A stretch of DNA of 64,000 nucleotides from Anaerolineae bacterium (GCA_049589355.1 JBAWAP010000384.1:2349-66348), one strand, 5' to 3'; positions 552-63,108 are shown, counted from the first letter of the stretch. Notes: generated from the letters alone by a model not told the origin. Numbers and translations are program-made.

Positions 552-1310
552 TCACGCTTCCAATCCCCATTGCCTCAGTTCCTCCATCATCTGGTATTGA
601 GTCATATCGAGATGGAGGGGAGTAATGGAGACATAGTTGTTAGCCAGAGCCCAGATGTCCGTGCCCTCCTCATCCACGCCGCGCGGCGGTTGGCCCCCGA
701 TCCAATAGTAGCTGCGGCCCCTGGGGTCCCGGCGCTCCACCAGGGCATCTCTGTAAACGCGCCTGCCCAAACAGGTAATTCTGATGCCTGCTATCTCATC
801 TTGAGGCACAGCAGGCACGTTGACATTGAGGAAGGCAGTAGGGGGTAAGCCGCGCTCCAGGACGAGTGTAACCAGCCGGGCGGCAAATCGGGCAGCGTAG
901 GCGAAATCCTCACTCTCGTACGAATCCAAGGAGACGGCGATGGCAGGCATGCCAAAGATGACTGCCTCCATGGCTGCGGCTACAGTACCCGAGTAGGTAA
1001 TGTCCTGGCCCAGGTTGGCCCCCTGGTTGATCCCGGAGACCACCAGGTCCGGCTTTCGGGGTAGGATGCCGAGCACGGCCAGGGCCACGCAATCTGACGG
1101 AGCCCCGTTGGAGGTATAGGCCATCGTCCCATCGGGCAGGGTCGTTTGGTTCACCCGTAGAGGCTTGTGCATGGTTTTTGTGTGGCCAGCAGCCGACCAA
1201 TTGTGATCGGGGGTGAAAACCGTGACCTCGCCGACCTCTTGGAGGGCCTTCTGAAGGATAAACAGCCCCGACGCATCAACGCCATCGTCGTTGGTGATTA
1301 AGATGTGCAA
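552..1310 (-). CDS. surE: 5'/3'-nucleotidase SurE
   Basis: 252 aa beginning MHILITNDDG, the SurE N-terminal signature; conserved GxNxG region. Confidence 0.9.
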   Translation of the reverse strand: MHILITNDDGVDASGLFILQKALQEVGEVTVFTPDHNWSAAGHTKTMHKPLRVNQTTLPDGTMAYTSNGAPSDCVALAVLGILPRKPDLVVSGINQGANLGQDITYSGTVAAAMEAVIFGMPAIAVSLDSYESEDFAYAARFAARLVTLVLERGLPPTAFLNVNVPAVPQDEIAGIRITCLGRRVYRDALVERRDPRGRSYYWIGGQPPRGVDEEGTDIWALANNYVSITPLHLDMTQYQMMEELRQWGLEA

Positions 1311-1496
1311 ACTGCAATTACCTCACTTTTGTAGGGATGCCCCAAAAGATCCATTAAGCGATTATACCCCACTAGCTTGTAAAAGGCAAAAACCTATAGC
1401 TTGTGCGGCGATTCGACCTTGGTGGAGGTCCTACCTTTTTTCTGTTCGCGAAGGCGTCACTAGCGAACCCTTGAGGGACCAAACTTAGATCGGCAC

Positions 1497-1536
1497 TTCA
1501 CGGAGAATTCACGGAAGTTTCACGCCGTTTTCACCC
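1497..1536. promoter_or_regulatory. Four direct repeats of TTCACGG/TTCACSC with exact 11-bp periodicity upstream of the response-regulator gene
   Basis: TTCACGG at 1497, 1508, 1519(TTCACGC), 1530(TTCACCC). 11-bp spacing is typical of helically phased transcription-factor sites. Confidence 0.35.
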
Positions 1537-1629
1537 ACTGTTGGGTTTAGAGGTGTTATACTATTGGTGGTAGTGATTCTCTATTATCCCTGTAAATAGG
1601 GGACCGGTCTAGGGCTAGCAGTAAGTGAA

Positions 1630-2418
1630 ATGCTCATCGAGGAACAAGAGGAGGAGATGAGAAACATGAGTGGCAAAGCTAGCATATTGATCGTGGACGA
1701 CGACAAAGGCATGGGCGAGACCTTGCTTGATATCATGGAGGAGATAGGGTACGATGCCGATGTCGCCAGGGATGGATTCGAAGCTATTGAGAAAGCCAAG
1801 AATGGCACCTTCGATGTAGTCCTTATGGACATCAAGATGCCGGGGATGAACGGGGTGCAGACGTTCAAGGAGATAAGGAAGATCCTGCCAGAGGTAAACG
1901 TCGTCATGATGACAGCCTATGCTATGGAAGACTTGATCACCGAGGCCCTGCAAGAGGGAGCCTATGGTGTGCTCTACAAGCCGCTGGAAGTCGAGAAGGT
2001 ACTGAACCTCGTTGAAAGTTTAAGCAGTCTAGGTCCTATCTTGGTGATAGATGACGACCCTGGTGTCTGTGAACAACTTAGGGACGTGTTGCAGCGCAAA
2101 GGTTATAATGTGCGCCTAGCCAGGAGCGGTGCCGAGGCCATAGATATTGTAAGGCAAATAGACACACAGATCGTATTTGTGGATGTCAAATTGCCGACTG
2201 CTACTGGTTTTGAGGTCTACAAAGCCATTAAAGAGATTAATCCCCAAGCGATGGCCATCATGATGACCGGCTATCATTACGAAGTTGTAGAGATGGCTGA
2301 CGAAGCCCCAAGGGGTGGTGCCATTGCTTGTTTATACAAACCCTTTGATGTCACCGAGATAGTGAGACTCGTCGAGGGAATTTCCCAGGAAAAGCGTCAG
2401 GTAGTGCCAAATACCTGA
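1630..2418 (+). CDS. Response regulator with two tandem CheY-like receiver domains, no output domain
   Basis: Two REC domains in the translation (ILIVDDD...DVVLMDIKMPGMNG...; ILVIDDDPG...VFVDVKLP); true start probably MSGKA at ~1666. Confidence 0.85.
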   Translation: MLIEEQEEEMRNMSGKASILIVDDDKGMGETLLDIMEEIGYDADVARDGFEAIEKAKNGTFDVVLMDIKMPGMNGVQTFKEIRKILPEVNVVMMTAYAMEDLITEALQEGAYGVLYKPLEVEKVLNLVESLSSLGPILVIDDDPGVCEQLRDVLQRKGYNVRLARSGAEAIDIVRQIDTQIVFVDVKLPTATGFEVYKAIKEINPQAMAIMMTGYHYEVVEMADEAPRGGAIACLYKPFDVTEIVRLVEGISQEKRQVVPNT

Positions 2419-2520
2419 CAACTGAATTGCTTAGCGGTTCCGAACTAGCGTGGGCAAGAAATATGCAGGACAATCAGGCGCGCTTTTGGGGATATCACTA
2501 CAAATGCCCGTCAAGGTCCA

Positions 2521-2549
2521 ACTTGACAACATGGGCATCCTAACCTATA
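2521..2549 (+). promoter_or_regulatory. Consensus sigma-70 promoter (TTGACA-17 nt-TATAAT)
   Basis: ttgacaacatgggcatcctaacctataat. Both hexamers perfect with a 17-nt spacer. Confidence 0.55.
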
Positions 2550-2556
2550 ATTCCCC

Positions 2557-2710
2557 TTGGGAAACAAGCAATGTACCTGATGGGGAAGAGGTTAGCTGCT
2601 AAACACGATTCGTGGGCTTTGGACCCGTCGCTTTCGGTGGACCGGGTAAGTGTGCGGGCGTTGATTACGCTTAGAGCCTAATGCCTTCGGGCATTGGGCT
2701 CTTTTTGTTC
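2557..2710 (+). ncRNA. Candidate ~150-nt small RNA or riboswitch-like leader of the downstream zinc-ribbon gene
   Basis: Bounded by a perfect promoter (2521-2549) and an intrinsic terminator (2673-2710); no plausible ORF inside. Class not identified. Confidence 0.3.
2673..2710 (+). terminator. Rho-independent terminator hairpin
   Basis: AGAGCCTAATGCC-TTCG-GGCATTGGGCTCT followed by TTTTTGTT. Confidence 0.6.
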
Positions 2711-2743
2711 TAGCTTGTGGCAAATGGCTGACGCTACACTTCT

Positions 2744-3463
2744 ATGGAGGTTGCTATCATGAGTAAGGCTGAGAGACTTTATCGCTTGCAGACCATTGAC
2801 CTGGAGGTCGAGGCGAGGAACTGCCGCCTGAGAGAAGTGAAAGCCACTTTGGAAGGAAATGAGGAATTGCAACGAGTGCGGCAGGCCCTGCAAGACGGAG
2901 AGAAGAAACTGAGCCGGCAGCGAACGAAGCTGCGCGACAGGGAACTGGAGATGCAAAGCCTGACCAACAAGATTGTTTCGGTGGAGGATATTCTCTACGG
3001 CGGCCGTATCAAAACCCCCAAGGAGCTAGCCAATCTTCAGGAAGAGGTTCAGTACCTGAAGCGCAGGAAGGGCGAACTCGAAGATCAGGTGTTGGAATCC
3101 ATGATCGAGGTTGAGGAGAGCGAAGCCAGCGTGACGGAGCAGCGGGAGAGGCTGGCCCGCCTGGATGAGGAGTGGCAAGAGACCCAAGCCCGGCTCTCCG
3201 CCGAACAAAATGAGCTAATAAGCCGACTGAGCCAACTAAAGGCGGAACGGGCTGGACTACAGAGGGCAATTGAGGCAGGCGACCTGGCCTTATACGAGGA
3301 TTTGCGACGCCGCAGGGGTGGGCGAGCGGTGGCTCTCCTGGAAGGCGAACTCTGTCAGGCCTGCAGGGTGACCCTGCCCACCAGCAAGGCGCAACAGGCC
3401 CGTCAAGGAGAGGCATTGACCCTCTGCAGTAGCTGCGAGCGCATCCTCTATGTGGAGCGATAG
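2744..3463 (+). CDS. Coiled-coil zinc-ribbon protein (COG1579/DUF164-like, C4-type)
   Basis: Long coiled-coil region followed by CQACRVTLP...CSSCERILY C4 ribbon. Probable true start MSKAER at 2759. Confidence 0.7.
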   Translation: MEVAIMSKAERLYRLQTIDLEVEARNCRLREVKATLEGNEELQRVRQALQDGEKKLSRQRTKLRDRELEMQSLTNKIVSVEDILYGGRIKTPKELANLQEEVQYLKRRKGELEDQVLESMIEVEESEASVTEQRERLARLDEEWQETQARLSAEQNELISRLSQLKAERAGLQRAIEAGDLALYEDLRRRRGGRAVALLEGELCQACRVTLPTSKAQQARQGEALTLCSSCERILYVER

Positions 3464-3880
3464 AGGCTTAACTATTCTAACAATCTTTCCTCCACTCTCT
3501 GAGCTGACAAACCAGATCAGAATCAGAAGCCCGGCTCTGTCGAAGCCTGGCTTTAACTGTCTTGCGTCTAGGACAGCTCGGTGTCAAGAATGCCTTGCTG
3601 CAGAGCTAGAGCTACCGCTTAGGTGCGGGCAGGCGCGTCAAGTCTCCACCTTGTCTACGAATGACTTTTCGATTACAATATGGGTGATCAAAGTGAGAAA
3701 ATTTCATCTTGGACAAGGACAGGCTGGCGCGCTACGGGGAGAAGTGCTTCGAGATCACCTTGCGGGGCATCGCGCTGGAGACCGTCAGCGAGAAGAGGCT
3801 GTTCACCGCGCTGCGCCTGGCCCGCAAGCGGCGTCGGTAAAAGGATAGACATCACGGAACAGAGGGAAACTATTGAAGGA

Positions 3881-4510
3881 ATGACGAACACGACTCCCAC
3901 CATCGAGCATGTGCGCGCCACGATGCATGGTCCGCTGCCCGGCCTTGAGGCGCAGATCACCATGGCTCCGTGCCCACGCCCGTTCAGTCCACCTCCCGGC
4001 GTCGAGCCCCGCCAGGCCGGGGTCCTGCTGGTCCTGTACCCCATCCACGGCGTGCTCCACCTGATGTTGACTGTGCGCACGCCAGACCTAAATCACCACA
4101 GCGGTCAGGTCTCGCTGCCCGGAGGCGGGTGGGAGGAAGGGGATGCTTCGCTCCAGGAGACCGCGCTGCGTGAGGCTCAGGAGGAAATCGGGATCGTCAG
4201 TGACGAGTTGGAACTTCTTGGTTCCCTCACGCCGATCTATGTCCCGCCCAGCAACAACATCGTTCATCCTTTCGTCGCTTACGTACCCCAACGCCCCTCC
4301 TTTCACCCCGATCCCAAAGAAGTGGCCGAGTTGCTGGATGTCCCCCTGTATCTGCTTCTGGACCCGGCGACGCGGCGCGAGGAGGACTGGACTTGGCGTG
4401 GAGCACCCTTGCACGTTCCCTTCTACGCTGCGGGCGAGCATAAGGTCTGGGGCGCTACCGCTATCATACTGGCTGAGTTCATCGCGCTGCTCACCCAATT
4501 GCCAACCTGA
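3881..4510 (+). CDS. NUDIX hydrolase (CoA pyrophosphatase-like)
   Basis: Nudix box GGGWEEGDASLQETALREAQEEIG. ATG at 3881 chosen over the upstream long ORF start (3680). Confidence 0.8.
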   Translation: MTNTTPTIEHVRATMHGPLPGLEAQITMAPCPRPFSPPPGVEPRQAGVLLVLYPIHGVLHLMLTVRTPDLNHHSGQVSLPGGGWEEGDASLQETALREAQEEIGIVSDELELLGSLTPIYVPPSNNIVHPFVAYVPQRPSFHPDPKEVAELLDVPLYLLLDPATRREEDWTWRGAPLHVPFYAAGEHKVWGATAIILAEFIALLTQLPT

Positions 4511-35868: not shown

Positions 35869-36489
35869 CTATCGCACTCCAAGAATTTCTCTCGCCACCT
35901 CCAACGTTCGATCTGCCAGAAACAGCAGTCTCCTTTGGATCTCCTCCTCGTTAATCAGGCCGCCAAAGAGGTTCTCTGTCGTGAAGCCAGCGTTATTGAT
36001 GACCTCGAAACCGGCCAGCTTTCTCCCCATACACTTCGCATCGTCGGACACTAAGCCTGGCGTCCATTGTGCACCATCTGACCAGTGAGGGGCGGCCAGG
36101 ACCACGGCGCTGACGACAGAGCGTTTTAGTTTCTCCACCGGCGCCTGATGGGAGAAAGCTTGCGCTCTCTGAGAAAAGGCTATCCACAGAGCGGGTGGCA
36201 GGCCGCCATAATTCGGTATGAAGAGTAGCAAGATATCCGCCTGCTAGCACTTCTCCCAGATCATTCGTACATCGTCTTCAATCGGGCAGGCTTCATCTGC
36301 TCTGCGCTGTGGATCGAAGCGAGCCACACACTCATACGAGCAGCGCTGGCAGGGGGTGATTTGGCAGTCATAGAAGTTGATCAACTCCCCCTCTACGCGC
36401 TGCTGTTTGAGCCGCTCCAGCATAAACTCGGCGAAGTCATAGCAATTGCCTCGCTCTCTGGCGCTGACTACCAAGGCCAGGGCTTTCAT
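35869..36489 (-). pseudogene. Flavodoxin-like/NADPH-dependent FMN reductase-like gene interrupted by an in-frame TAG
   Basis: ORFs 36244-36489 and 35869-36231 are in the same frame, separated only by TAG (WEKC*QADILLLFIPNYGG). Confidence 0.45.
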
Positions 36490-37445
36490 CGCCTCCTCCC
36501 TCTCCCCGGGTTTGGAATGTAACGCAGGGCCACTTCGGCGGCTTGTGCTCGCTGCTCATCCTGTAGCCAGCCCTCCAGAACCGGCCGCACGGCCTCAGGC
36601 TGGCGCTGGCCCAGATAGTGGAGTGCAGAAGCGGCGGCTCGCCAGACAAAGCGCCGCTCGTCAGCCGCCAACTGGCCGAGGATTTCGAGTGCCTCCTGCA
36701 AATGTCGAGTTCCCCCGAAGCTACGAAAGGCCATGGCCACATTCCACCGCACCTCTTCTCTGGGGTCATCGGCCCAGCGACGAAGGCGGGCCAGAGTGGG
36801 CCGCGGATGGCACCTCAAGAGCCCATCGCCGATGGCATAGGGACCCAGATTCTTGCGTACGTACTCCTCGCGGTCGGCGAGTAGCGACTCCACCAGGTTG
36901 AGGAGGGCCTCGGCCCACTCTTCTCTCCGCTCGTTGCCCGCCTTCCGCACGGCGATGGTCACACCTCGCCGCACGTTGGCAGAAGGATGCCGCGTCCAGG
37001 ACCAGAGAACGCGGTAGAAGACGTCGAAGTGGGCTACGAGGAGGCTGCCCAGCGTACTATGGGCAGCCTCGCGGACCCACCAGTCCTCGTCGTCGGCGAG
37101 ACGCAGAAGCCATGCCTGAACCTCGGCAGCCCGCAAGGGCCAGTAGTGACGAAGCAAAGGGGCTGCGACGGCTCTCGCCGCTGGCTCCGGCCGCTCGGCC
37201 AGACGGCAGGTCCAATCGTAGAGCTCTTCCGTCCCAGGACCGAGGGCCTCCTCGATAGTCACCATGGCCTGGTAGCCAGTCTTGCCCCACTTGGTGGTCA
37301 TCAGGGTAGCAACCAGGCCCTCCTCGTCATCGGCTTCGAGAGCGCGTTGCGCAGCCTGAGCGTCGAACTGGCCCTTGGACGAACTTGCAAGCCCAGGTGT
37401 GCGGGTTGTTTCCTGGTGTTGCGGCAACCGGTTGGCCAACGACAT
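36486..37445 (-). CDS. DNA alkylation repair protein (AlkD/AlkC-like HEAT-like-repeat glycosylase family)
   Basis: WWVREAAHSTLG, NVRRGVTIAV, EVRWNVAMAF motifs typical of the DNA_alkylation HLR family. Confidence 0.65.
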   Translation of the reverse strand: MSLANRLPQHQETTRTPGLASSSKGQFDAQAAQRALEADDEEGLVATLMTTKWGKTGYQAMVTIEEALGPGTEELYDWTCRLAERPEPAARAVAAPLLRHYWPLRAAEVQAWLLRLADDEDWWVREAAHSTLGSLLVAHFDVFYRVLWSWTRHPSANVRRGVTIAVRKAGNERREEWAEALLNLVESLLADREEYVRKNLGPYAIGDGLLRCHPRPTLARLRRWADDPREEVRWNVAMAFRSFGGTRHLQEALEILGQLAADERRFVWRAAASALHYLGQRQPEAVRPVLEGWLQDEQRAQAAEVALRYIPNPGRGRRR

Positions 37446-37737: not shown

Positions 37738-37812
37738 GCGGGTGTGACGCAGGGGTAGCGTATCTGCTTCCCAAGCAGAGTGTCGAGGGTTCGAATCCCT
37801 TCACCCGCTCCA
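37738..37812 (+). tRNA. tRNA-Gly (anticodon CCC)
   Basis: GCGGGTG acceptor stem, anticodon stem TCTGC/GCAGA with loop TTCCCAA, T-loop GGTTCGAATCC, 3' CACCCGC-T-CCA. Confidence 0.9.
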
Positions 37813-53501: not shown

Positions 53502-55807
53502 CGTGATCCTACCTCAGCAGATAGAAGGGGATTTTCAGCCAGCCGCAGTTCCAGCAAGGCTTGGAGAAAGGCCAGCGTCGACTCCGCGCCCTGATTCTCG
53601 TTAGGGCGGTCAGGATGCAAACCGTCCCGGCAGCCCCCCGTAGTCGGGTCGTAAACCGGGAGGTTCAGGTCGTTGCGCCCGAGGAACCACTCGAAGGCGC
53701 GGCGGGCTTCCTTACGCCAGCGCTTATCGCCCGTGATCCGGTAGGCTTCGAGACAGGCAGAGACCATCGCTTGCGCCTCCACCGGCTGTTGATCGAACCG
53801 GGCCCGCTCACCATTTCGTTGATAAAAGCCGTTGGATCCGATAGGCACAAAATGCCCCGCGTCCGCGCGCTGCAGGTCGGCCAGCCAACAGAGCGCCTCT
53901 AGTCCGGCTTCGGTCATGGTGGCATTCGGTATCGATTGGCCACACGTGAGCAACGCATGCGGTAGCGCGGCGTTGCAATAGGTCAGCCGGTCTTCATACC
54001 AGCGCCATTCATCCGAGCGGTGGCTTTGATACAACGTCAGCAGCCGCCCGGACAATTCCTCCCGGACTTGGCTAGCCCTGCGGTCACCGGCAAAGCGTTG
54101 CAGGTATTCGTGGATGCCGATCAGCGCGAAAGCCCAGGCGCGTGGGCTGGTCGTGTTGACAATAGCGGGCAAGGCCTGCTCGAAAACCCGGCCAGCCATA
54201 CTTTGCAGGGCCGGCGTGTTCGAGCGGCCCAACACGGTGCCCAACGCCCACAACGTGCGGCCATGGCTGTCGTCGGAACCGCCAACTTCCAGCCAGTGGC
54301 GCTGGTAATCCATAGAGTTACGGAAGCGTCCGGTTTCAGTATTGAAGGCATACCAGATAAAAGCAAGATAGCGGGATGCCAGATCGAGAGCCTCTTTGTT
54401 GCCGAGCGACTCGAGGAGCGCGCTCACCATGAGCGCGCGGGCATTGTCGTCGGTGGTGTAACCTTCGCGATAGTTGGGGATCGCGAAAATGGCGTGTTGC
54501 AGTATGCCGGTCTCGTCTGTCATATGGTGCAAGTGGTCCAGTTTGAGAGGCGGCAATTCGCCCGGACGTTTGTCTAATGGTTTAACTGCGAAGTCCGGAT
54601 GAGCAAAATGACGGCGCTCCGCTCGAGCGCGTTTGAAACTCTCCATATAGCGGCTCGCTACCTGCGGCCAGATCATCTCTCGCCCAAACACATAGGCCCG
54701 CTTGCGCATGGCGTGGCGCTGGGCATCGTTGTCTAAAAGGTTAATCACCTGATCGGCCAGCGCCACCGGATCCCGGAACGGCACCAGCGCTCCCCGTCCT
54801 TCGGCTAGCATCTCTTCCGCATACCAATATGGTGTTGAAATGACCGCCTTGCCTGCCCCTACAGTGTAAGCGAGCGTACCCGAGACGATCTGCGCCGCGT
54901 TGAGATACGGTGTGATGTAAATGTCCGCCGCGCTGATGAACTGAACGAGCTCTTCCAAACTAACAAAGCGGTTATAGAAAATCACCTGACCTTCTACGCC
55001 TTTCTCCTGAGCCAGCCATTGCAGGGACAGCCGGTACGTTTCGCCTTCATTCCGGACTACGTGGGGGTGGGTCGCGCCGAGGATGATGTACACCACGTTT
55101 GGGTGTCGGGCTAAAATAGCGGGCAGGGCGGCGATGACATTTTCGATCCCTTTGTTCGCCGAGAGCAAGCCGAAGCTAAGTAAGACGATTTTGCCCTCGA
55201 CTCCAAACAGGTCTTTGTGAAAACTCGGGTCTACAAAGGGCACATCAGGGATGCCGTGGGGGATCAGATCAATCTTCTCCGGCAGCACACCATAGACCTC
55301 GTGCAAGAATTTCGCGCCGCGCTCACTCATGACGACCAACCGATCGGATAGGGCCGCCACCTCTTCCAGCACCCGGCGCTGGTCGGGGTCGGGGTCGCGC
55401 AGAATGGTGTGCAGGGTGGTGACGATGGGCATGCGCAATTCACGTAAGAGGGCCAGGATGTGACTGCCCGCCCGCCCGCCGAAGATGCCATACTCGTGTT
55501 GCAGGCACACCAGGTCAACGTTGTTGATATTCAAAAAGTCGGCGGCGCGGCGATAAGAATCAATATCCTTCTCGGTGAGTTCAAACCGAACGCGGGGCGG
55601 ATAGGCGTAGCCGGCCTCGGTGTCATTGACGGGCAGGGCGAGGCAGGTTGTGTCGCCGTATTCGGCGGCGACGGCCTCACACAGGTCGGTAGTGAACGTG
55701 GCGATGCCGCACTGGCGCGGCGAGTAGTTGCCGATGAAGCCAATGCGGTTGATGGTTGAAGCGCTTGAGCTATGCTCCATGACGAACATCTCTTTTCTAG
55801 CAACCAC
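53498..55807 (-). CDS. GT4-family glycosyltransferase fused to a C-terminal alpha/alpha-barrel (six-hairpin glycosidase-like) domain
   Basis: N-terminal GT-B fold (~400 aa) and ~350-aa helical C-terminus. 4-nt overlap with the GH130 gene. Confidence 0.75.
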   Translation of the reverse strand: MVARKEMFVMEHSSSASTINRIGFIGNYSPRQCGIATFTTDLCEAVAAEYGDTTCLALPVNDTEAGYAYPPRVRFELTEKDIDSYRRAADFLNINNVDLVCLQHEYGIFGGRAGSHILALLRELRMPIVTTLHTILRDPDPDQRRVLEEVAALSDRLVVMSERGAKFLHEVYGVLPEKIDLIPHGIPDVPFVDPSFHKDLFGVEGKIVLLSFGLLSANKGIENVIAALPAILARHPNVVYIILGATHPHVVRNEGETYRLSLQWLAQEKGVEGQVIFYNRFVSLEELVQFISAADIYITPYLNAAQIVSGTLAYTVGAGKAVISTPYWYAEEMLAEGRGALVPFRDPVALADQVINLLDNDAQRHAMRKRAYVFGREMIWPQVASRYMESFKRARAERRHFAHPDFAVKPLDKRPGELPPLKLDHLHHMTDETGILQHAIFAIPNYREGYTTDDNARALMVSALLESLGNKEALDLASRYLAFIWYAFNTETGRFRNSMDYQRHWLEVGGSDDSHGRTLWALGTVLGRSNTPALQSMAGRVFEQALPAIVNTTSPRAWAFALIGIHEYLQRFAGDRRASQVREELSGRLLTLYQSHRSDEWRWYEDRLTYCNAALPHALLTCGQSIPNATMTEAGLEALCWLADLQRADAGHFVPIGSNGFYQRNGERARFDQQPVEAQAMVSACLEAYRITGDKRWRKEARRAFEWFLGRNDLNLPVYDPTTGGCRDGLHPDRPNENQGAESTLAFLQALLELRLAENPLLSAEVGSR

Positions 55808-56057
55808 CCTCTTTTTTCGTTGCCTCTTGGCTCATTAACGCAAAGAGGCGGTTGCCCTAGTGACAGCCTCTGCCATACCCAGAAAAGATTGGGGCCGAGT
55901 GTTTTCTGTGTGGAAGGTGAGCCGGCAATGATTACATCGTCAATCATTATACCAGACGGTTAGGGTTAATCTTAATCTGCTCTCCTTGCTCAAGTTGCTG
56001 AGATAGATTCAATCAGTAAACGACATTGTCTGAGATGTTGCCATTGTGCGAAGTGCC

Positions 56058-56165
56058 CGCCCAACGATCAAGCTGAGCCACGCCGGGCCGAGGACTCGGG
56101 ACAACCCGCGACTTCTCGGCAAACTGAAGACGCCAACCGGCGTTGGCTCCAGCGATTTTGTTAGG
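56058..56165 (-). repeat. attC site (cassette 4, distal end of array)
   Basis: Minus-strand GCCTAAC overlapping the ORF stop ... GTTGGGC; internal complementary arms. Confidence 0.6.
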
Positions 56166-56631
56166 CGTCATGTGTCGGAACAAGCTCATGGACGAACTCC
56201 TCTGGTGAAGATGGTGACACGACCACGGTGCGTCCTGTGTATCGCAAAACCACAGTTCGGCGCAGGTCAGTAACAAAGGCTCGGTAAACGCCCAAAAGCT
56301 TGCTCCAGTAAAACCCTGTAATAGAAAAGAATCCGCCGTTGCCACAACGGATGCTCCAACGCATCACTCGCGGCTGAAACTGCGCAGACTGCAAGCCGGC
56401 AAGTGGCAGCCGCGTTGCCCAGAACAAACGATGAATCAAGATGGCATCGGGAGTGACCGTGTATCCACGAATGGTGAAGAGCGCGCAACCGAGAATCAAT
56501 GCCAGCAACAGCAGTCCGAACAACGTGTGGCTCTGCATAAATGCTTCATATGCGATGCCCAGGCACAAGACCGTGAGCAGTGATGATACAACGATGAGCG
56601 GAATACCCCAGTGTGCTTTGTAGTGTTTCAT
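56161..56631 (-). CDS. PH-domain (bPH_2/YdbS-like) membrane protein, integron cassette 4
   Basis: Two N-terminal TM helices then bacterial PH domain. Confidence 0.55.
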   Translation of the reverse strand: MKHYKAHWGIPLIVVSSLLTVLCLGIAYEAFMQSHTLFGLLLLALILGCALFTIRGYTVTPDAILIHRLFWATRLPLAGLQSAQFQPRVMRWSIRCGNGGFFSITGFYWSKLLGVYRAFVTDLRRTVVLRYTGRTVVVSPSSPEEFVHELVPTHDA

Positions 56632-56653
56632 AATTGTGTGGTGTGTTGAATGA

Positions 56654-56752
56654 CGCCTAACGGCCTCGAGCTGAGCCGCCCGGCCAGCCAAGGCTAGTAT
56701 CGCGCGAGAGCCAAGACCTGGCTGGCCGGGTCGGCTCCAGCGAGTTGTTAGG
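56654..56752 (-). repeat. attC site (cassette 3)
   Basis: GCCTAAC-...CTCGAGCTGAGCC/GGCTCCAGCGAG, GCCGCCCGGCCAGCC/GGCTGGCCGGGTCGGC paired arms...-GTTAGGC; 99 bp. Confidence 0.7.
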
Positions 56753-56800
56753 CAGACTTCTGCCCATGATCATGGTCCCCGACTTAAAATAATCCCCGCC

Positions 56801-57982
56801 CTAATCGGGAGAGTCAATTTGATTTCGAATTGCTTCAGCAGTTAAGAAAGCGGCGTTCCATCCACCGAGGCTGGTTTCGCGCAACTCTGACGCGATGCTT
56901 GTCTTATCCAATCCATGGGTCATGAGATTCTTTGTCAGACCAAATCCAATCCTACGACCGGGGTCTGCGAATCCCAATGATCCTCCTGCGCCTGTATGAC
57001 CAAATTCATTACCCGATGTACCCATAGGTATGATCCCACCCCGGCTGACGTCACCTCCAAGAAAATAGCCAAGTGCCTTACGAACCCTATAACCAAGCAC
57101 CTCATCGCGAGCATCGGTCTGTAGGGTTCGAATTACATCGACCTGCTCGGATGAGAGGATTCGAACTCCGTCAAGCTCTCCGTGGGACGCCAACATCGCG
57201 AAGTGACGGGCAATAGCGCGCGCATTCATAATGCCCCCCGCTGCGGGAATTGAGGCTCGGCGCACGTCGGGCCGATTGAGGACCTCAACGTTGGACACAT
57301 GGGCTGGTATCGCCCTTGAAAGGAGTTCGGTCGGCTCAGATGTCACCCCCTCGGGTAGCGGTTCTCGAGAAAGCGGTGCAATGCGGGTTTCAACATCATC
57401 AGGAATGCCTAGGTAGAAGTCTTCAATACCCAAAGGATGACAGAGTTCTTCTTGAGCAAACTGCGCAATAGATCGGCCATCGATCCGGCGAATTAGCTCA
57501 CCCACAATCCAACCGAAAGTGAAAGCGTGATATCCCGTCTTAGTACCAGGTGCCCATAATGGCTCAAGCTTAGCTATGGCTGTACACATGGCCCCCCAGT
57601 CGGTCATCATCTCAGGTGTCACACCTTTCGGCATTTGTGGTATGCCTGCCGTATGAGTCAGTACATGGCGAACTGTGATCGCATCTTTTCCATTCGCGGA
57701 GAATCCAGGCCAATAGATCGCAATTGGCTGGTCGTAGTCGATAGATCCACGATCAGCCAAAATATGAAGACAGGTTGAGGCAAAACCTTTGGTAACTGAC
57801 CAGGAGGTGAAGAGTGTATTCCCGTCAATAGGCTGTCCGGTAGTTACGTCAGCAATCCCAGACCAAGCATCTACAACGAGTTCACCGTTTATGTACGCTG
57901 CTACTTGCAAACCAAGCTCTTTACCTGTGGTGACCAAATCAATAAGAATACCCTGCACTTGTTCATTCAAATCGTTCTGCAT
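56801..57982 (-). CDS. Beta-lactamase-fold serine hydrolase (class C/EstB-like), integron cassette 3
   Basis: SWSVTKGF S-x-x-K motif. Confidence 0.8.
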   Translation of the reverse strand: MQNDLNEQVQGILIDLVTTGKELGLQVAAYINGELVVDAWSGIADVTTGQPIDGNTLFTSWSVTKGFASTCLHILADRGSIDYDQPIAIYWPGFSANGKDAITVRHVLTHTAGIPQMPKGVTPEMMTDWGAMCTAIAKLEPLWAPGTKTGYHAFTFGWIVGELIRRIDGRSIAQFAQEELCHPLGIEDFYLGIPDDVETRIAPLSREPLPEGVTSEPTELLSRAIPAHVSNVEVLNRPDVRRASIPAAGGIMNARAIARHFAMLASHGELDGVRILSSEQVDVIRTLQTDARDEVLGYRVRKALGYFLGGDVSRGGIIPMGTSGNEFGHTGAGGSLGFADPGRRIGFGLTKNLMTHGLDKTSIASELRETSLGGWNAAFLTAEAIRNQIDSPD

Positions 57983-58010
57983 AGCTGGACTGCTTCTTTC
58001 GTTTCAGTCT

Positions 58011-58165
58011 GCCTAACGGCGCGGACGCGCAGCGTCCGCGCTAACGGAATGGCTCAGCGGCAGCGGCGGGACAGGCAAGACGCCTTCTCGATTATCGCGT
58101 ATTTCTGGCAAAACGCGCCTGCACGCGAGCGGCGCAGCCGCTGTCCGCTGGAGCCGGTGTTGGGT
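58011..58165 (-). repeat. attC site (cassette 2), ~155 bp
   Basis: Minus-strand ACCCAAC ... GTTAGGC located 29 nt upstream of the serine-hydrolase ATG; internal perfect 10-bp inverted repeat GCGCGGACGC/GCGTCCGCGC. Confidence 0.55.
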
Positions 58166-58190
58166 GCGCATTTGGTTATTGAATACTGAC

Positions 58191-59192
58191 CTATGAGTTG
58201 GTTTCAGCATCTTCATCTTCCTTGTCCACAATTCCCATACGCTCAGTTCGAGCCAAAGCTTTTCGGATTTCAACGTATTTCTGTGTGTCACCTTTTGCGC
58301 TTGCCAAAAGCAGAGTCATCATGGGGTTGCCCGACTTCTCTATTTCCTCAGCGTGCTTTAGAACAAATTTGTCAAGTTCTTTATGCCAGCCTAGTTCTTG
58401 GAGTGCGCGAATCTGCCACCATAAATCGCCTTCATCAGCAGATTGTCTAAGGGCAAGAATAAACAGCTCATCCAAGAGACCTTCTTCTACAAACTCTTTC
58501 AAGTAGAAAGCGGCTGAAAAATACCGGTTATCTTGAAGCGACTTGTTAATGCCGAGAATATAATCCGATATAGCTTCGCGAGTCTTGCCTAGACCCTTAT
58601 AGAACCGCGCTCGTTGAAGCCAGTCCTTGTCTTGGGTGTATCTCATTACTTCACGTTCAATAACTTCGGCTGGTATAAGGTCGGGCTTGCCTTGCATACT
58701 TCTCAGGAAGCAGATTGTTTGGTCGTGGGGGTCTTGTTTAATTGCTAATTCAATATATTTATCCCGCAACTCGATATTGCCAATAGAATGATAGTGCATT
58801 GCCAATAATTCGTATTCTTGATTCTCTCGATAGATTTCTGCGACTGTAGTTACCAATTCGACATTATAACTATCGTCGCCTTCAAGGACCTCATATTTTT
58901 TATAGTTTGCACGTTGTTGTGCTACAAGTCGAAGCCAATCATCGCGATAGAGGATGACTTGGTCTGCGTCAAGCTTCCTATCAAAGCCGCCACTAATTTG
59001 TGTTTCACGATGACAGTCAAAGCATAGGACAGCAAGATTTTTTAGGTCGTAGTTGCTTGGTTCTTCGTCGATGTGATGTATCTGAACGGGCTTGCCACGA
59101 ACACGGCAGACACAGCATACGCGGTCCGAGAGAAACAAGACACGCGCCGCAATATCATCGGGTATTGGTTCTTTTATCTTCTTCTTCGCCAT
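58191..59192 (-). CDS. HNH-nuclease-motif protein fused to alpha-helical repeat domain, integron cassette 2
   Basis: CCVCRVRGKPVQIHHIDEEPSNYDLKNLAVLCFDCH (C-x2-C...HH...N...C-x2-C-H). Confidence 0.5.
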   Translation of the reverse strand: MAKKKIKEPIPDDIAARVLFLSDRVCCVCRVRGKPVQIHHIDEEPSNYDLKNLAVLCFDCHRETQISGGFDRKLDADQVILYRDDWLRLVAQQRANYKKYEVLEGDDSYNVELVTTVAEIYRENQEYELLAMHYHSIGNIELRDKYIELAIKQDPHDQTICFLRSMQGKPDLIPAEVIEREVMRYTQDKDWLQRARFYKGLGKTREAISDYILGINKSLQDNRYFSAAFYLKEFVEEGLLDELFILALRQSADEGDLWWQIRALQELGWHKELDKFVLKHAEEIEKSGNPMMTLLLASAKGDTQKYVEIRKALARTERMGIVDKEDEDAETNS

Positions 59193-59248
59193 ATGCAAAA
59201 GCTCAAATCGTTACAAATGGAAGCGCCCGACTGCGGCGAGGAACGCCT

Positions 59249-59323
59249 GCCTACCAAAACGTAACACAGACGAAGAACGTTTGAAAAAAGCCGCGTGAGG
59301 GCGTCGGCTGCACGCAATGTTAG
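59249..59323 (-). repeat. attC site (cassette 1)
   Basis: GCCTAACATTGCGTGCAGCCGACGCC... closely resembles class-1 style attC left end; right boundary degenerate (GGTAGGC) and may extend to ~59215. Confidence 0.5.
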
Positions 59324-59354
59324 GCGCGGCACTGATGCGTAAAGATTTCCCGAT

Positions 59355-60938
59355 CTAGTAAAAGATATCTTCAAACAACGGCGCAAAAACGTCCTCGTCC
59401 ACCTCAATACCAGCAGGGACCGCTAATGGCAGTTTGTCAGAATCATAGAACCCAACCCTCTCTTTCTTCAAGAGTCGAAAATTGGGGTCACTTAAGACGT
59501 GATCAGTGTGAGTGCATGAGGGTAACCAACCTTTCACATTTGCTTCGTATGAGAGCAACCACTGTGAATCATACAGGTTGGCTTCATCCATATAAGTTTC
59601 CCAGAGGGTTGTGTCTAGACCGGATGGTATCAGCCCTCGCTCATTAGCGTCTAACGTGAGCAGCGCCACTATAGAATCATGCATCCTTGACAACGCGGCG
59701 GCAGCGGCGGGATCAATTGTAATCCCGAAGAAGATTGCGGCCCAAACAGACCAGGCAGCTTCGCCCCCATAATTCGAGGCGCACTGATGTACGATTTCAC
59801 TATTTAGTACCTCGCCAACTGAAGCAACATCAATATCGAAGCCTAATTGATGATATTGAATCAACAACTCCAGGACTTGGAAAAATGTTCCAGTCTCAAC
59901 CATTAGGCATTGAAACAGGAAATGTTGAAGCAACGGCCAGTTGGCGCGGTCAATTGCCTCACTCTTATCTTCTCTAGGAGAAAGCCGTGCGACAGCGTAC
60001 TCGAGGACGTGGTCCTTGGAATGTTCGCGTGCGAGTTCAAAAGCCAGATCGAAATAGGTCATCAGGTCAGTGGCTTGTGCTTTAGGGGTGCTTCGGAATC
60101 GGAATGTTCGCAACTGGGGAACCCATCTGGCCACAATGCGAATCGGCAACTCGATTATCTCTGTCTTATCCGAGTTTAGTTCGAGCTCATATTCCCGCAG
60201 TACTGCGCGAAGCGTAGATAGGGCAGACTCGGCTTCTGATCGCGATCGAAACCCAAACTCAAATTCGTCCACAAATCGAAAGCCCCTGATCTTTCCGAGT
60301 TGTTTTTCCAGTTCCTCGTCGGTTGCATTAAGGATTATCTCGGCTATCAAAAACGATGTATCGGGGCCAATCGGTATGCCTATGGTCTGATCATCCTGCC
60401 CGCGCCTGATCCACCGATCTAGCGAGTTGCCGATATGCTGATTACCACGATTGACCTTTGCAAAGTCTTTACCGTGAATTGCCCACGGAATGCTATGTGT
60501 ATAAACCGACGGGTAGAATTTTGAGATATCGGCCTTGAGGATGAACTTTGAGGTAGATCTAGCCTGCAATCGCATCGCAGGTAAATCATCGTAAGTCACT
60601 ATTGGTACAATAGCACGACTTGTAGGTTGCCCAATGGTGGGCTTGCTACAAGAGATTCTTGAACGGTTCGCAGCGCTGCTTAACTGAGGCCAGTTATTTA
60701 CCACATCACAGCAAAGGTTGTGTTGAACTATTGGGTTGGGGATCGATAAAAACCTGCGATTAATGCCTACGCGCGCGAAACTATGGCGCACAGGCTTTGC
60801 CCGTTTGGGGTCGTTGAAGGTGTTTGGAAGATGTCCAGCATTTGCGGCCATTACTTGTGCGAATCGCTCAGTCGAGAACGGCGCTGGGAGTTTAGCAGGG
60901 AAGAAACCGCGAGATAATAGCAATGATAAGTCGGTCAT
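59355..60938 (-). CDS. Reverse transcriptase, Abi/DRT (unknown-group) type, integron cassette 1
   Basis: RT motifs ILKADISKFYPSV (motif 2), IGIPIGPDTSFLIAEIIL (motif 4), FRFVDEFEF at the YxDD position; 130-aa N-terminal and ~230-aa C-terminal extensions. Confidence 0.65.
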   Translation of the reverse strand: MTDLSLLLSRGFFPAKLPAPFSTERFAQVMAANAGHLPNTFNDPKRAKPVRHSFARVGINRRFLSIPNPIVQHNLCCDVVNNWPQLSSAANRSRISCSKPTIGQPTSRAIVPIVTYDDLPAMRLQARSTSKFILKADISKFYPSVYTHSIPWAIHGKDFAKVNRGNQHIGNSLDRWIRRGQDDQTIGIPIGPDTSFLIAEIILNATDEELEKQLGKIRGFRFVDEFEFGFRSRSEAESALSTLRAVLREYELELNSDKTEIIELPIRIVARWVPQLRTFRFRSTPKAQATDLMTYFDLAFELAREHSKDHVLEYAVARLSPREDKSEAIDRANWPLLQHFLFQCLMVETGTFFQVLELLIQYHQLGFDIDVASVGEVLNSEIVHQCASNYGGEAAWSVWAAIFFGITIDPAAAAALSRMHDSIVALLTLDANERGLIPSGLDTTLWETYMDEANLYDSQWLLSYEANVKGWLPSCTHTDHVLSDPNFRLLKKERVGFYDSDKLPLAVPAGIEVDEDVFAPLFEDIFY

Positions 60939-60992
60939 GTCATTTGATAGGTGAATCTACCTCCAAGTCTAATGCTCAATCAATCTTCAGTT

Positions 60993-61085
60993 TCGATTTG
61001 AAGCGCCTAACTATTGAGTATACGGAATCCATCTTTCCTTGCCATTTAAGCGTCTTAGACGGAATCAACCTAATCTGCTAGCAAG
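60993..61085. other. attI region with GTTAGGC crossover core (minus-strand reading) at 60993-60999
   Basis: GTTAGGC 55 nt upstream of the RT start, between the first cassette and intI. Confidence 0.5.
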
Positions 61086-61114
61086 GTTGCATTTGCGGGA
61101 ATTGTGTGTATAAT
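61086..61114 (+). promoter_or_regulatory. Candidate P_intI promoter (TTGCAT-16-TATAAT)
   Basis: ttgcatttgcgggaattgtgtgtataat ~100 nt upstream of intI ATG. Confidence 0.45.
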
Positions 61115-61216
61115 AACCCTGTTCCCAGCCCTTCTGCGGAATGTGCCAGATGGCCGGGTAGATGCATTATAAAGCGCAATCCAGAAAAAGTCAACCTGTA
61201 CCGGAGGAAAACCGCG

Positions 61217-62176
61217 ATGGAACCCGCTTCTAGAAAACTGCTCGATCGAGTCCGAGATGCCCTGCGCCTCAAACACTACTCCATCCGTACCGCAGTTTCC
61301 TACGTGAATTGGATCCGACGCTATGTCCTATTCCACAATAAGCGACATCCCAACGAAATGGGCAGCGTCGAGGTCGAAGCCTTTCTCACCCATCTGGCGG
61401 TGAAGGAAAACGTCGCCGCATCCACACAAAACCAGGCCCTCAGCGCTCTGCTGTTTCTGTACCGCGAGGTGTTGAAAAAAGACCTGGGGCCTATAGACGC
61501 CCTGCGCGCGAAAAAGCCCAAACGCCTGCCCACCGTCCTGACTCGGGAGGAGGTGCGCCGCGTCCTCGGCCACCTGTCGGGCACGCACCAACTAATGGCC
61601 AAACTGCTCTATGGTAGTGGCCTGAGGTTGATGGAGTGTGTACGCCTGCGCGTCAAAGACCTGGATTTTGCCCAGCGGGCGATTGTCATCCGCGACGCCA
61701 AGGGCGACCAGGACCGGGTGACGATGCTGCCCGAAAGCCTCATCGCACCGCTACAGGAACATCTGCTGCGTGTAAAACGCCTGCACGAAGAAGACCTGGC
61801 CAAAGGCTATGGCGCCGTCTACCTGCCCTACGCCCTGGAACGCAAATACCCCAGTGCCGACCGGGAATGGACCTGGCAATATGTCTTCCCTGCGCAGCGG
61901 CTTTCCGTGGACCCTCGCAGCGGCGTCGTGCGCCGCCACCACGTAGACGAGAGCGGTCTGCAAAAGGCGGTTCGAGAGGCGGCCCGCCTGGCCGGCATCC
62001 CCAAACCGGTCAGCCCCCATACCTTCCGCCACAGCTTTGCCACCCATTTGCTGGAAAATGGCTATGACATCCGCACCGTGCAGAAGCTCCTCGGCCATAA
62101 GGATGTGAAAACAACCATGATTTACACCCACGTCCTCCAGCGCGGCGGCCTGGCAGTACGCAGCCCACTGGACTAG
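61217..62176 (+). CDS. intI: Integron integrase IntI (tyrosine recombinase)
   Basis: Integron-specific insertion [23 protein letters not shown]...[26 protein letters not shown]; catalytic R..HxxR..Y ([12 protein letters not shown]...IYTHV). Close resemblance to IntI1 across the whole length. Confidence 0.9.
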
Positions 62177-62370
62177 ACTTGAGCAACGCTGATTGACCTA
62201 TGCACCAAGAACATATCTACATTGAGAAACTGACCACCATCCAGCAATTCCATCGTGGAGCCTCCCTTTGAGCTGAACCCTGACGGGCCGGGCATCGGCG
62301 TGACGGTGGACGAGCGCCCTTCGCTGGAATGTACTATCAGGAGGCAGGTCTTCCAGGAGGGAATTCAGGT

Positions 62371-63108
62371 TCAATTAACGCGAACGTACATCCCCCGCCA
62401 GTCGTTGAGCCGCACTTTGAGCAGTTCTCCTAACATACCCAGGGTATCTTTGATAGGGCGGACCCTGCTGTTGGCCATGTAGTACCAGTTGATGGGCACC
62501 TCAACGATATGGTAACCCCGCTTCCGGGCGATGAATAGCACCTCCACGTCGAAGCCCCAGCCCTCCATGGTCTGATAAGGGAAGATGTCGCGGGCCACCG
62601 CTTGCCGAAAGCACTTGAAGCCGCACTGGGTGTCCTGGAAGCCCGGCACAGCCAACAGGCGGACGAGGAAGTTAAACACTCGTCCCATGAGATGGCGATA
62701 GGCGGGCTCGCCGTAGCGTCGGGCCCCCTCTACCTCCCGCGAAGCGATGGCCACATCGTAATTCTCAAGCTGGGGAGGGAGGAACTTGGCCACCTCCTCA
62801 ATGGGCATGGAGAGATCGGTGTCGCAGAAGAAGAGATACTCCCCCCGCGCGGCCATCATGCCTAGCTTGACGGCCAGCCCCTTGCCCCGCCGCTCGTCCC
62901 TGATCAGCGAGATGAAGGGGCAGCGAGCCATAAACTCTTCGACCACGGCGGCGGTGTTATCCTGGCTGCCGTTGTCAACCACGATCACCTCGGCCTCGTA
63001 GTCCTGCTCCTGAAGGAAAGCGACGATCTTTTCCAGGCTTCCAGGCAGCCGCTGCTCCTCATTATGAGCAGGGATAATTATCGAAAGAAGCGGCTCAGAG
63101 TTTAGCAC
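62371..63108 (-). CDS. GT2-family glycosyltransferase (polyprenol-phosphate mannosyl/glucosyltransferase-like)
   Basis: LSIIIPAHNEE...VVDNGSQDNT...DTD DxD motif. Confidence 0.85.
   Translation of the reverse strand: MLNSEPLLSIIIPAHNEEQRLPGSLEKIVAFLQEQDYEAEVIVVDNGSQDNTAAVVEEFMARCPFISLIRDERRGKGLAVKLGMMAARGEYLFFCDTDLSMPIEEVAKFLPPQLENYDVAIASREVEGARRYGEPAYRHLMGRVFNFLVRLLAVPGFQDTQCGFKCFRQAVARDIFPYQTMEGWGFDVEVLFIARKRGYHIVEVPINWYYMANSRVRPIKDTLGMLGELLKVRLNDWRGMYVRVN

Follow-up and report, generated by a model that had tools for sequence, protein, structure and literature searches.

The question raised by this locus is whether positions 56058 to 62176 of a 64 000-nt stretch of DNA from an Anaerolineae bacterium (GCA_049589355.1 JBAWAP010000384.1:2349-66348; the whole stretch, at its full length, is referred to below as the window) make up a complete integron, and whether the cassettes of this integron are the discrete, mobile units that they appear to be. 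A first-pass annotation, made from the sequence alone, had described the region as a complete chromosomal integron with four unidirectional cassettes in a high-GC, Chloroflexi-like genome, and this description is borne out by a protein family model, by the folds of the cassette recombination sites (attC), by comparison of the boundaries with other contigs and by the taxonomic label of the integrase. With high confidence, the region is a complete small chromosomal integron of an uncultured Anaerolineae (Chloroflexota) bacterium, and the evidence supports a composition of an integrase gene (intI), an attI site and a unidirectional cassette array bounded by attC sites. The inventory of the array is three intact attC sites, one truncated site (attC1) and one fused pair of cassettes (1 and 2). 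The count of four cassettes holds in the sense that there are four cassette open reading frames (ORFs), all on the minus strand, upstream of the plus-strand intI, but cassettes 1 and 2 are now fused, with a defective attC1 between them. The GC content of the cassettes is 47-54%, compared with 58-60% for intI and the flanks. Every hallmark of an integron that could be examined was found.

The intI gene occupies positions 61217 to 62176 on the plus strand (319 amino acids from the ATG, stop codon included in the coordinates; the mechanical start is a GTG at 61106), and its product, IntI, is an integron integrase. It scores 495.6 bits against the NCBIfam model TIGR02249 ‘integron integrase' (cutoff 265), with the XerC, XerD and XerA models all far under their cutoffs, and contains the Pfam domains Phage_int_SAM_4 and Phage_integrase. 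Residues 9-318 align with VchIntIA (PDB 2A3V; E = 1e-101), and the 38-residue insertion found only in IntI proteins lines up with the VchIntIA insertion that docks the extrahelical bases of attC; the IntI-only segment singled out in the first-pass annotation (20 residues leading to RRHHV) is thus the genuine one. The motifs GLRLMEC, AKGDQDR, HTFRHSF, LGH and IYTHV match the same motifs in 2A3V, so that the catalytic R-K-H-R-H-Y set, as generally assigned in tyrosine recombinases, is intact. The proposed alignment with IntI1 along the length of the protein was recovered in a plasmid comparison, with 54.7% identity across 99% of the length, whereas the class 1 equivalog model NF011946 yields 372.3 bits, under its cutoff of 435.

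IntI is 100% identical to a protein labelled by NCBI ‘MAG: integron integrase [Anaerolineae bacterium]' (P0001), which agrees with the Chloroflexi-like host that had been suggested and implies that the integrase is already annotated in the public record. Thousands of relatives at 65-97% identity are found in Anaerolineae, Chloroflexota and cyanobacterial assemblies, many of them named ‘integron integrase', and thousands of metagenome proteins are at least 78% identical; copies at 65-81% identity are present in 80 species-level genomes, mostly of Anaerolineae and Cyanobacteria. Using IntegronFinder, Cury et al. 2016 (PMC4889954) identified integrons in non-proteobacterial phyla that include Chloroflexi and Cyanobacteria. 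Because an identical integrase is already annotated, and both Chloroflexi integrons and defence cassettes in integrons have been published, the element is of a known kind. Another ORF of the window with a product of 319 amino acids (36486-37445) was considered and rejected as a recombinase; it encodes a HEAT-repeat/DNA-alkylation-repair protein.

Exact GTTAGGC or GTTGGGC heptamers lie on the minus strand at 61005-61011, 58011-58017, 56655-56661 and 56059-56065, and inverse cores on the same strand at 59325-59319, 58165-58159 (ACCCAAC), 56753-56747 (GCCTAAC) and 56166-56160 (GCCTAAC). The cores previously given at 58011, 56654 and 56058 are therefore correct to within 1 nt, and the RYYYAAC inverse cores and complementary arms said to precede them are present at all three. 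Six of the eight GTTAGGC heptamers of the window fall within 56.1-61.0 kb; the loose pattern GTTRRRY shows no enrichment in the 64 kb (97 found, 90.5 expected). On the minus strand, attC2 spans 58011-58165 (155 nt; R'' ACCCAAC and R' G/TTAGGC at 58017-58011, where the slash here and below marks the crossover point), attC3 spans 56655-56753 (99 nt; R'' GCCTAAC, R' G/TTAGGC) and attC4, the distal end of the array, spans 56059-56166 (108 nt; R'' GCCTAAC, R' G/TTGGGC). The identity between pairs of sites in the array is 47-65%.

When the plus strand of each site is folded as single-stranded DNA and compared with shuffled sequences, attC3 reaches -33.9 kcal/mol (z-score -5.4), attC4 -28.8 kcal/mol (z-score -3.3) and attC2 -47.8 kcal/mol (z-score -2.1). 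The three sites share one plan: an R box of 7 bp (RYYYAAC paired with GTTRRRY; 7-8 bp in attC3), an unpaired spacer of 5-9 nt, then a short stem and a stem of 5-6 bp, each followed by a single-base bulge, and finally a longer stem with a variable loop. Both bulges, which the proposed bottom-strand folding had been meant to reveal, are on the 3' arm of the plus strand, opposite the AAC triplet, which is the position of the extrahelical bases of the recombinogenic bottom strand (Nivina et al., PMC5027507). Hence the bottom strand corresponds to the plus strand of the window and the coding strand of the cassettes to the minus strand, in agreement with the orientation of the ORFs. The apical bulge is a T in attC2, attC3 and attC4, as in the literature, and also in the intact counterpart of attC1 on another contig, L090 (2198-2321); the basal bulge is a G in attC2 and a C in attC3, attC4 and the L090 site. 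In related Anaerolineae arrays (L005-L087), in the register used by the scanner described below, the basal base is a C in most matches and the apical base is mostly a C, the latter in an ambiguous register.

The insertion in attC2 has features of its own. Between R' and L', at 58020-58040, lies a perfect 21-nt palindrome, CGCGGACGC-GCA-GCGTCCGCG, flanked by a 7-nt direct repeat CTAACGG (58013-19 and 58041-47), so that there are two candidate crossover cores, GTTAGGC and GTTAGCG. The palindrome occurs once in the window and is not a repeated element there.

The sites were also sought with an explicit scanner for the attC architecture, used in place of a covariance model because MAFFT misaligned the arms of the three sites. 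In its strict form, applied to both strands of the 64 kb, the scanner yields exactly three matches, all on the plus strand, at 56059-56166, 56655-56753 and 58039-58165, the last one beginning at 58039 through the use of the inner CTAAC of attC2. The chance rate, estimated from 40 first-order Markov simulations, is 0.05 matches per window. Of the four attC sites that had been annotated, attC2, attC3 and attC4 thus stand, with the canonical bottom-strand architecture, but attC1 proved to be truncated.

Where the cassettes begin and end can be read from other contigs. L008 and L009, from sister strains, encode an IntI that is 97% identical, with the same downstream GT2 genes and a different first cassette. 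From intI to ..AAC/TATTGAG (plus strand) they differ very little from the window, beyond that point they are unrelated to it, and on the cassette strand the junction reads CTCAATAG/TTAGGCG in the window and CTCAATAG/TTCGGCA in L008 and L009. The breakpoint in attI, 61011/61010, is found alike from these contigs and from L090, in which positions 511-2300 correspond to cassette 1 of the window (61011 to 59223) at 99% nucleotide identity. In L090, cassette 1 is located between two intact attC sites, and what precedes it is the end of a different attC (..GGCTAACGCAATTCG/TTAGGCG) instead of attI; since the same G/TTAGGCG start follows different upstream sites, the left end of cassette 1 is the same G/TT. 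At the distal end of the array, L105 carries, at 88% identity, the 769-amino-acid GT4 glycosyltransferase (GT769) that flanks the integron in the window, and nucleotide homology extends from this gene to ..ATCG/TTGGGCGGGCAC (window 56072) and then ceases. The breakpoint in L105 appears to coincide with the terminal core G/TTGGGC of attC4 (56065/56064), and it is only this coincidence that is claimed here. The attI crossover, the left end of cassette 1 and the distal end of the array all fall at G/TT, within the GTTRRRY cores at which the cassette boundaries had been predicted.

At the position of attC4, L105 (JGI Ga0315295_10019483) contains, at 3640-3765, a hairpin that resembles attC, with the boxes GCCTAAC and GTTGGGC but no bulges. 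It is missed by both the strict scanner and the relaxed one introduced below, and no intI lies within 3.7 kb. Beyond the hairpin lies a PadR/FtsX/ABC transporter operon in the opposite orientation.

These comparisons bear on whether the integron still works. That it is a fossil, a real platform and array that have ceased to recombine, with cassettes that have turned into ordinary fixed genes of the chromosome, is favoured by a truncated site among the four attC, by an insertion between R' and L' of attC2 and by a short array; such a state is nevertheless unlikely, given that IntI is not truncated and conserves all of the catalytic and bulge-docking positions, that strains with 97% identical IntI have, at the same locus, another first cassette joined exactly at G/TT, that L005-L007 combine identical IntI and the same downstream genes with different cassettes, and that the 99% identity of cassette 1 to the copy in another array implies recent transfer. 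A working integron is preferred, with an IntI that probably retains recombination activity today, as judged from these comparisons.

The boundary between cassettes 1 and 2 is different in kind. A degenerate core had been placed at about 59249, but this GGTAGGC (59249-59255) belongs to the loop of attC1 and is present also in the intact L090 site, in which the true R' lies ~60 nt further on. In the window, attC1 (59223-59325, minus strand) retains R'' (GCCTAAC at 59325-59319) together with L'' and the loop, and has lost R' entirely as well as the end of L'. The intact site in L090 is 124 nt long, with R'' GCCTAAC, L' GGGCGCGGCTGAC and R' GTTAGCC, and the window matches it exactly as far as ..GCAGTCGGGCGC and then continues as TTCCATTTGTAACGATTTGAG, the leader of the second ORF. 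Homologues of cassette 2 (88% nucleotide identity) are free-standing in L175-L177, where each follows another attC, starts at G/TTGGGCGCTTTTGCCTGTAACAATTTGAG and is succeeded by an attC of its own, so that cassette 1 (in L090) and the cassette 2 homologue are each found as discrete mobile units in different arrays. A hexamer, GGGCGC, is shared by L' of attC1 and the start of the cassette 2 homologue after its G/TT. The hexamer at both ends and the remnant of attC1 imply a 23-nt deletion between the two GGGCGC copies (GGCTGACGCCTGCCGTT plus one repeat), which would have taken the last ~21 nt of attC1, that is, the end of L', all of R' and hence the crossover site. With R' lost, cassettes 1 and 2 are fused and, judging from the sites that are left, would now move only as a single 3.0-kb unit (61010-58017). 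The truncated attC1 is detected by neither scanner, and the segment 59242-59329, which is only part of 59223-59325, folds no better than shuffled sequences (z-score -0.66). Alternative placements of attC1 as a site of 67-77 nt, with R' at GCCTAcC (59249) or ACGTAAC (59259), are ruled out by the intact 124-nt L090 site.

Could the two genes instead be one native cassette, encoding a two-gene defence system of a reverse transcriptase and an HNH-TPR protein? They lie side by side in one orientation, a functional attC is lacking between them, and both have a flavour of defence (a DRT-like enzyme and an HNH protein with weak ZorE-like matches). Nevertheless, this is very improbable: the reverse transcriptase gene occurs alone with an intact attC in L090, the HNH-TPR gene is found by itself in L175-L177, flanked by attC sites of its own, the junction is inside a remnant attC at a 6-nt repeat belonging to both ends, the GC content differs slightly (48.8% and 46.6%), and DRT4 and DRT6 are single-gene systems (PMC12783706). 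Fusion by deletion accordingly remains the preferred history of this pair.

The genomic context speaks to whether the integron is chromosomal. The flanking genes encode a GH130 protein, GT769 and two GT2 proteins, and no transposase, relaxase or replication gene was found in the flanks examined. The junction of intI with GT2 recurs in L008 and L009, and the end of the array next to GT769 recurs in L105; from these shared junctions, it follows that the element is chromosomal and positionally stable in this lineage. That it is instead a mobile integron, carried by a transposon, a plasmid or an island, might be surmised from the different gene neighbourhoods of the IntI relatives at 83-87% identity and from a cyanobacterial plasmid that carries a 66.5% identical IntI; against the shared junctions on both sides, the lack of mobility genes in the examined flanks and an intI GC content equal to that of the host, this is hardly credible. 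Beyond the immediate lineage, an integron is absent from the vicinity of GT769 in most relatives in which this gene is 80-91% identical, and GT2_245 never adjoins GT769 in 80 loci, so that no simple insertion footprint can be defined for the chromosomal integron.

Beside a GT769 orthologue that is 87% identical, L101 (JGI Ga0156295_1243) carries, at 1185-4216, a different small integron, with an IntI of 317 amino acids that is ~62% identical to that of the window, a HigB/HigA-like pair among its cassettes and an attC at 4159-4216. On the opposite side, this integron is bordered by a gene for an Obg-like GTPase, and the arrangement may reflect either a recurrent landing site or replacement of the platform. 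The only RNA gene detected in the window by Rfam and tRNA scans is a tRNA-Gly (CCC) at 37738-37812 on the plus strand.

The attI site, on the minus strand, is assigned to 61005-61070, with its G/TT crossover between 61011 and 61010; the core had been annotated at 60993, about 12 nt away from the true one at 61005-61011. The extent of attI beyond the core is putative, as is any role of its repeats: a direct repeat TAKACGGAATC occurs on the plus strand at 61019-61029 and 61056-61066, 37 nt apart, and we presume that these copies may be accessory IntI-binding sites, comparable to DR1 and DR2 of attI1. Two candidate promoters stand face to face between attI and the array on one side and intI on the other. 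The candidate integrase promoter (Pint), TTGCAT-16 nt-TATAAT on the plus strand at 61087-61114 (hexamers at 61087-92 and 61109-14), lies ~100 nt upstream of the intI ATG and is identical in L008 and L009; the hexamers and the spacer named in the first-pass annotation are there, but the -35 hexamer is weak, with three of six positions of the TTGACA consensus, and the element was not called in a promoter scan of 55800-62400. The candidate cassette promoter (Pc), TTGACT-17 nt-TATAAT at 61166-61194 on the minus strand, is the top sigma-70-like match of the same region (11 of 12 positions); it lies in the intI leader, between the ATG and attI, where a Pc is expected, and points at attI and the cassettes, and both of its hexamers are conserved in L008 and L009. 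Use of either promoter in the cell is putative.

Taken together, these parts suggest the following mechanism. As an integron-type tyrosine recombinase, IntI would pair the folded bottom strand of attC (the plus strand of the window) with the double-stranded attI next to intI and would cut between A and C of the AAC triplet, equivalent to G/TT on the cassette strand. With the attI crossover at this G/TT, new cassettes would enter at 61011/61010, and transcription of the array would start at a promoter located in the intI leader and directed towards the cassettes, for which the element running from 61194 to 61166 is the candidate.

Several observations weigh against a complete and canonical integron. 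The first extrahelical base is a C in three sites, whereas in the literature this base is ‘usually a G' (PMC5027507), and attC2, at 155 nt with an odd 30-nt insertion, exceeds the range of 57-141 nt given in the same source. The fourth site, attC1, is defective, and the boundaries at attC2 and attC3 are placed from structure alone. The candidate Pc and Pint are consensus matches only, and promoter-like sites are at the level of chance (7 found, 6.3 expected). Furthermore, the scanner was designed after the sites had been seen and, therefore, was tested on other loci. Across 1.016 Mb of sequence surrounding 89 related intI genes, the strict scanner produced 41 matches, of which 40 are upstream of intI on the predicted strand and the remaining one is upstream on the other strand; there were none in 626 kb downstream and none inside intI. 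In the class 1 integrons of pCZ862 and psflex069, the strict scanner recovered no attC, because the stems of these sites beyond the second bulge contain mismatches. A relaxed scanner found both GES attC sites of the class 1 plasmid pCZ862 on the right strand and recovered the three window sites, at the cost of two weak extra matches elsewhere, about one chance match per 64 kb and one false match inside intI1.

A further adverse point is that the sequence is a metagenome assembly, so that the array might, wholly or in part, be a chimera of cassettes from different strains. Contigs with close IntI relatives (L001-L004, L008 and L009) very often stop upstream of intI, within a few hundred bases of the gene, at attI or slightly beyond it, which is consistent with strain-variable arrays that break assemblies, and assemblers do struggle with such arrays. 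A chimera is still extremely improbable: the attC sites are 47-65% identical, and the words that they share, such as GGCTCCAGCGA (by eye), are too short for k-mer joins, the sole irregular junction, that of cassettes 1 and 2, shares just 6 nt, and both outer junctions are reproduced independently in other samples. The array is accordingly treated below as a genuine one.

What does this integron carry? Cassette 1 (59223-61010, minus strand) contains an ORF at 59355-60938 for a DRT6/DRT4-like UG/Abi reverse transcriptase of 527 amino acids, followed by the truncated attC1. In PADLOC, the protein matches Drt6 with 561 bits (residues 3-503) and Drt4 with 542 bits, both over the full length; among structures, it matches the MBP-fused reverse transcriptase 9wy8_A with E = 6e-82 and the UG15/DRT4 structures with E = 8e-27. 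The NCBIfam Drt4 equivalog gives 238 bits, under its cutoff of 450, so that the protein is not DRT4 proper. The predicted product is probably an anti-phage reverse transcriptase. DRT4 and DRT6 act as abortive-infection systems, with protein-primed, template-independent synthesis of single-stranded DNA, and the D240A/D241A mutant of DRT4 is dead (PMC12783706). Motif C of the cassette protein (around residues 221-224) reads FVDE rather than YxDD, or the Y/F-x-D-D of DRT6, DRT4 and most relatives, with the second aspartate replaced by glutamate. This replacement is common only to the closest relatives (P0121-P0124 and P0127; 69-98% identity), more distant ones having DD, and its retention in those relatives argues for a conserved variant rather than a dead copy, as far as can be judged from the alignment. 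Near the relatives of the gene in L091-L094 (67-76% identity), the strict scanner found no attC, a result that is uninformative with regard to their status as cassettes.

The remaining cassettes are more diverse in predicted function. Cassette 2 (58017-59222, minus strand) contains an ORF at 58191-59192 for a 333-amino-acid protein with an HNH motif and tetratricopeptide repeats (TPR), followed by attC2. The Pfam matches to HNH and TPR_8 are weak; the protein is 100% identical to P0241, ‘HNH endonuclease signature motif containing protein [Anaerolineae bacterium]'. The family, of ~330 amino acids, is widespread, with members at 52-56% identity in Pseudomonas syringae, Bacillus, Paenibacillus and Cohnella, and the HNH motif alone matches ZorE-type models, weakly. 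Cassette 3 (56661-58016, minus strand) contains an ORF at 56801-57982 for a serine hydrolase of the beta-lactamase fold (393 amino acids; LipL/EstB-like), followed by attC3. It scores 231 bits against PF00144 and 209 bits against the NCBIfam LipL esterase/beta-lactamase model (cutoff 650), and class C beta-lactamase models give 37-67 bits, far below their cutoffs. The gene should thus not be called a resistance gene, and the product seems closest to LipL-type esterases. A terminator-like hairpin with a T-rich tail (ATTATTTTAA; 56794-56810, minus strand) overlaps the stop codon of this ORF (56803-56801), upstream of attC3, and could limit read-through into cassette 4. Cassette 4 (56065-56660, minus strand) contains an ORF at 56161-56631 for a membrane protein with a bacterial PH domain (156 amino acids; PF10882 bPH_5, 30.8 bits), with its TAA stop codon inside R'' of attC4. 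The functions of all the cassette proteins are predictions from such family matches.

How does this integron compare with those already known? The superintegron of Vibrio cholerae holds well over a hundred cassettes, and sedentary chromosomal integrons (SCIs) are generally recognized by a large array, of ~20 or more cassettes, with homogeneous attC sites. With four cassettes and attC sites that are only 47-65% identical to each other, the integron in the window differs from the V. cholerae superintegron, with its homogeneous VCR repeats, and does not have the array size and site homogeneity of an SCI. It does have the fixed location of one, given the junctions shared with L008, L009 and L105, with more distant relatives lacking an integron or having a different one. 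It further resembles the V. cholerae superintegron in the full-length alignment of its integrase with VchIntIA and in its long attC sites (99-155 nt), with the large variable loops of sedentary integrons. With class 1 integrons it shares the order of the modules, the face-to-face arrangement of the (here, candidate) promoters and 54.7% identity to IntI1, as well as the L-box layout of the GES attC sites (3 bp, bulge, 5-6 bp, bulge, stem), but it differs from them in an NF011946 score under the cutoff, the absence of a Tn402 or 3'-CS context and of recognized resistance cassettes, and a candidate Pc that is in the intI leader rather than inside the coding sequence. From the chromosomal integrons of other non-proteobacterial phyla, there is no categorical difference: the IntI-specific domain, the divergent array, structured attC sites and the chromosomal location are all shared. 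As far as we could find, this array, its cassette content and the fused cassette have not been described previously.

Cassette 1, for its part, is similar to DRT6 (UG12) and DRT4 (UG15) in its full-length matches and in having a single gene per cassette, as in L090, and unlike them in FVDE in place of YxDD and in the low score for the Drt4 equivalog. In Vibrio sedentary integrons and proteobacterial mobile integrons, cassettes have been reported to carry anti-phage systems, with 783 predicted systems, and such systems are expressed once they are brought to the first position (Darracq et al. 2025, Kieffer et al. 2025, as summarized in PMC13434031). The integron in the window resembles those cases in that a probable anti-phage gene occupies the first, promoter-proximal position, and differs from them in its Anaerolineae host.

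The understanding of the mechanism of integrons is not changed by these results. Their value is, rather, in a boundary-resolved integron outside Proteobacteria, with three junctions fixed to the nucleotide across samples, and in a cassette fusion traced to a specific 23-nt microhomology deletion; the attC, attI and IntI sequences are, moreover, usable for recombination tests in a distant IntI clade. The main points of note are the DRT6-like cassette with the FVDE motif and the reconstruction of the fusion at the level of nucleotides. The locus supports the published view of integrons as elements that stock defence genes and extends this view to Anaerolineae. A more far-reaching proposal, to which we would currently give somewhat less than an even chance, is that cassette 1 encodes a functional member of an as yet undescribed DRT6-related subclade, with the catalytic motif (F/Y)VDE, and circulates as an integron cassette among environmental Anaerolineae, with the GT769 site perhaps serving as a recurrent landing place for unrelated platforms. 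If this is the case, the GT769 locus would point to replacement of entire integron platforms or to their targeting to a site, and small Chloroflexi integrons would be exchangeable stores of anti-phage genes, as already shown for Vibrio.

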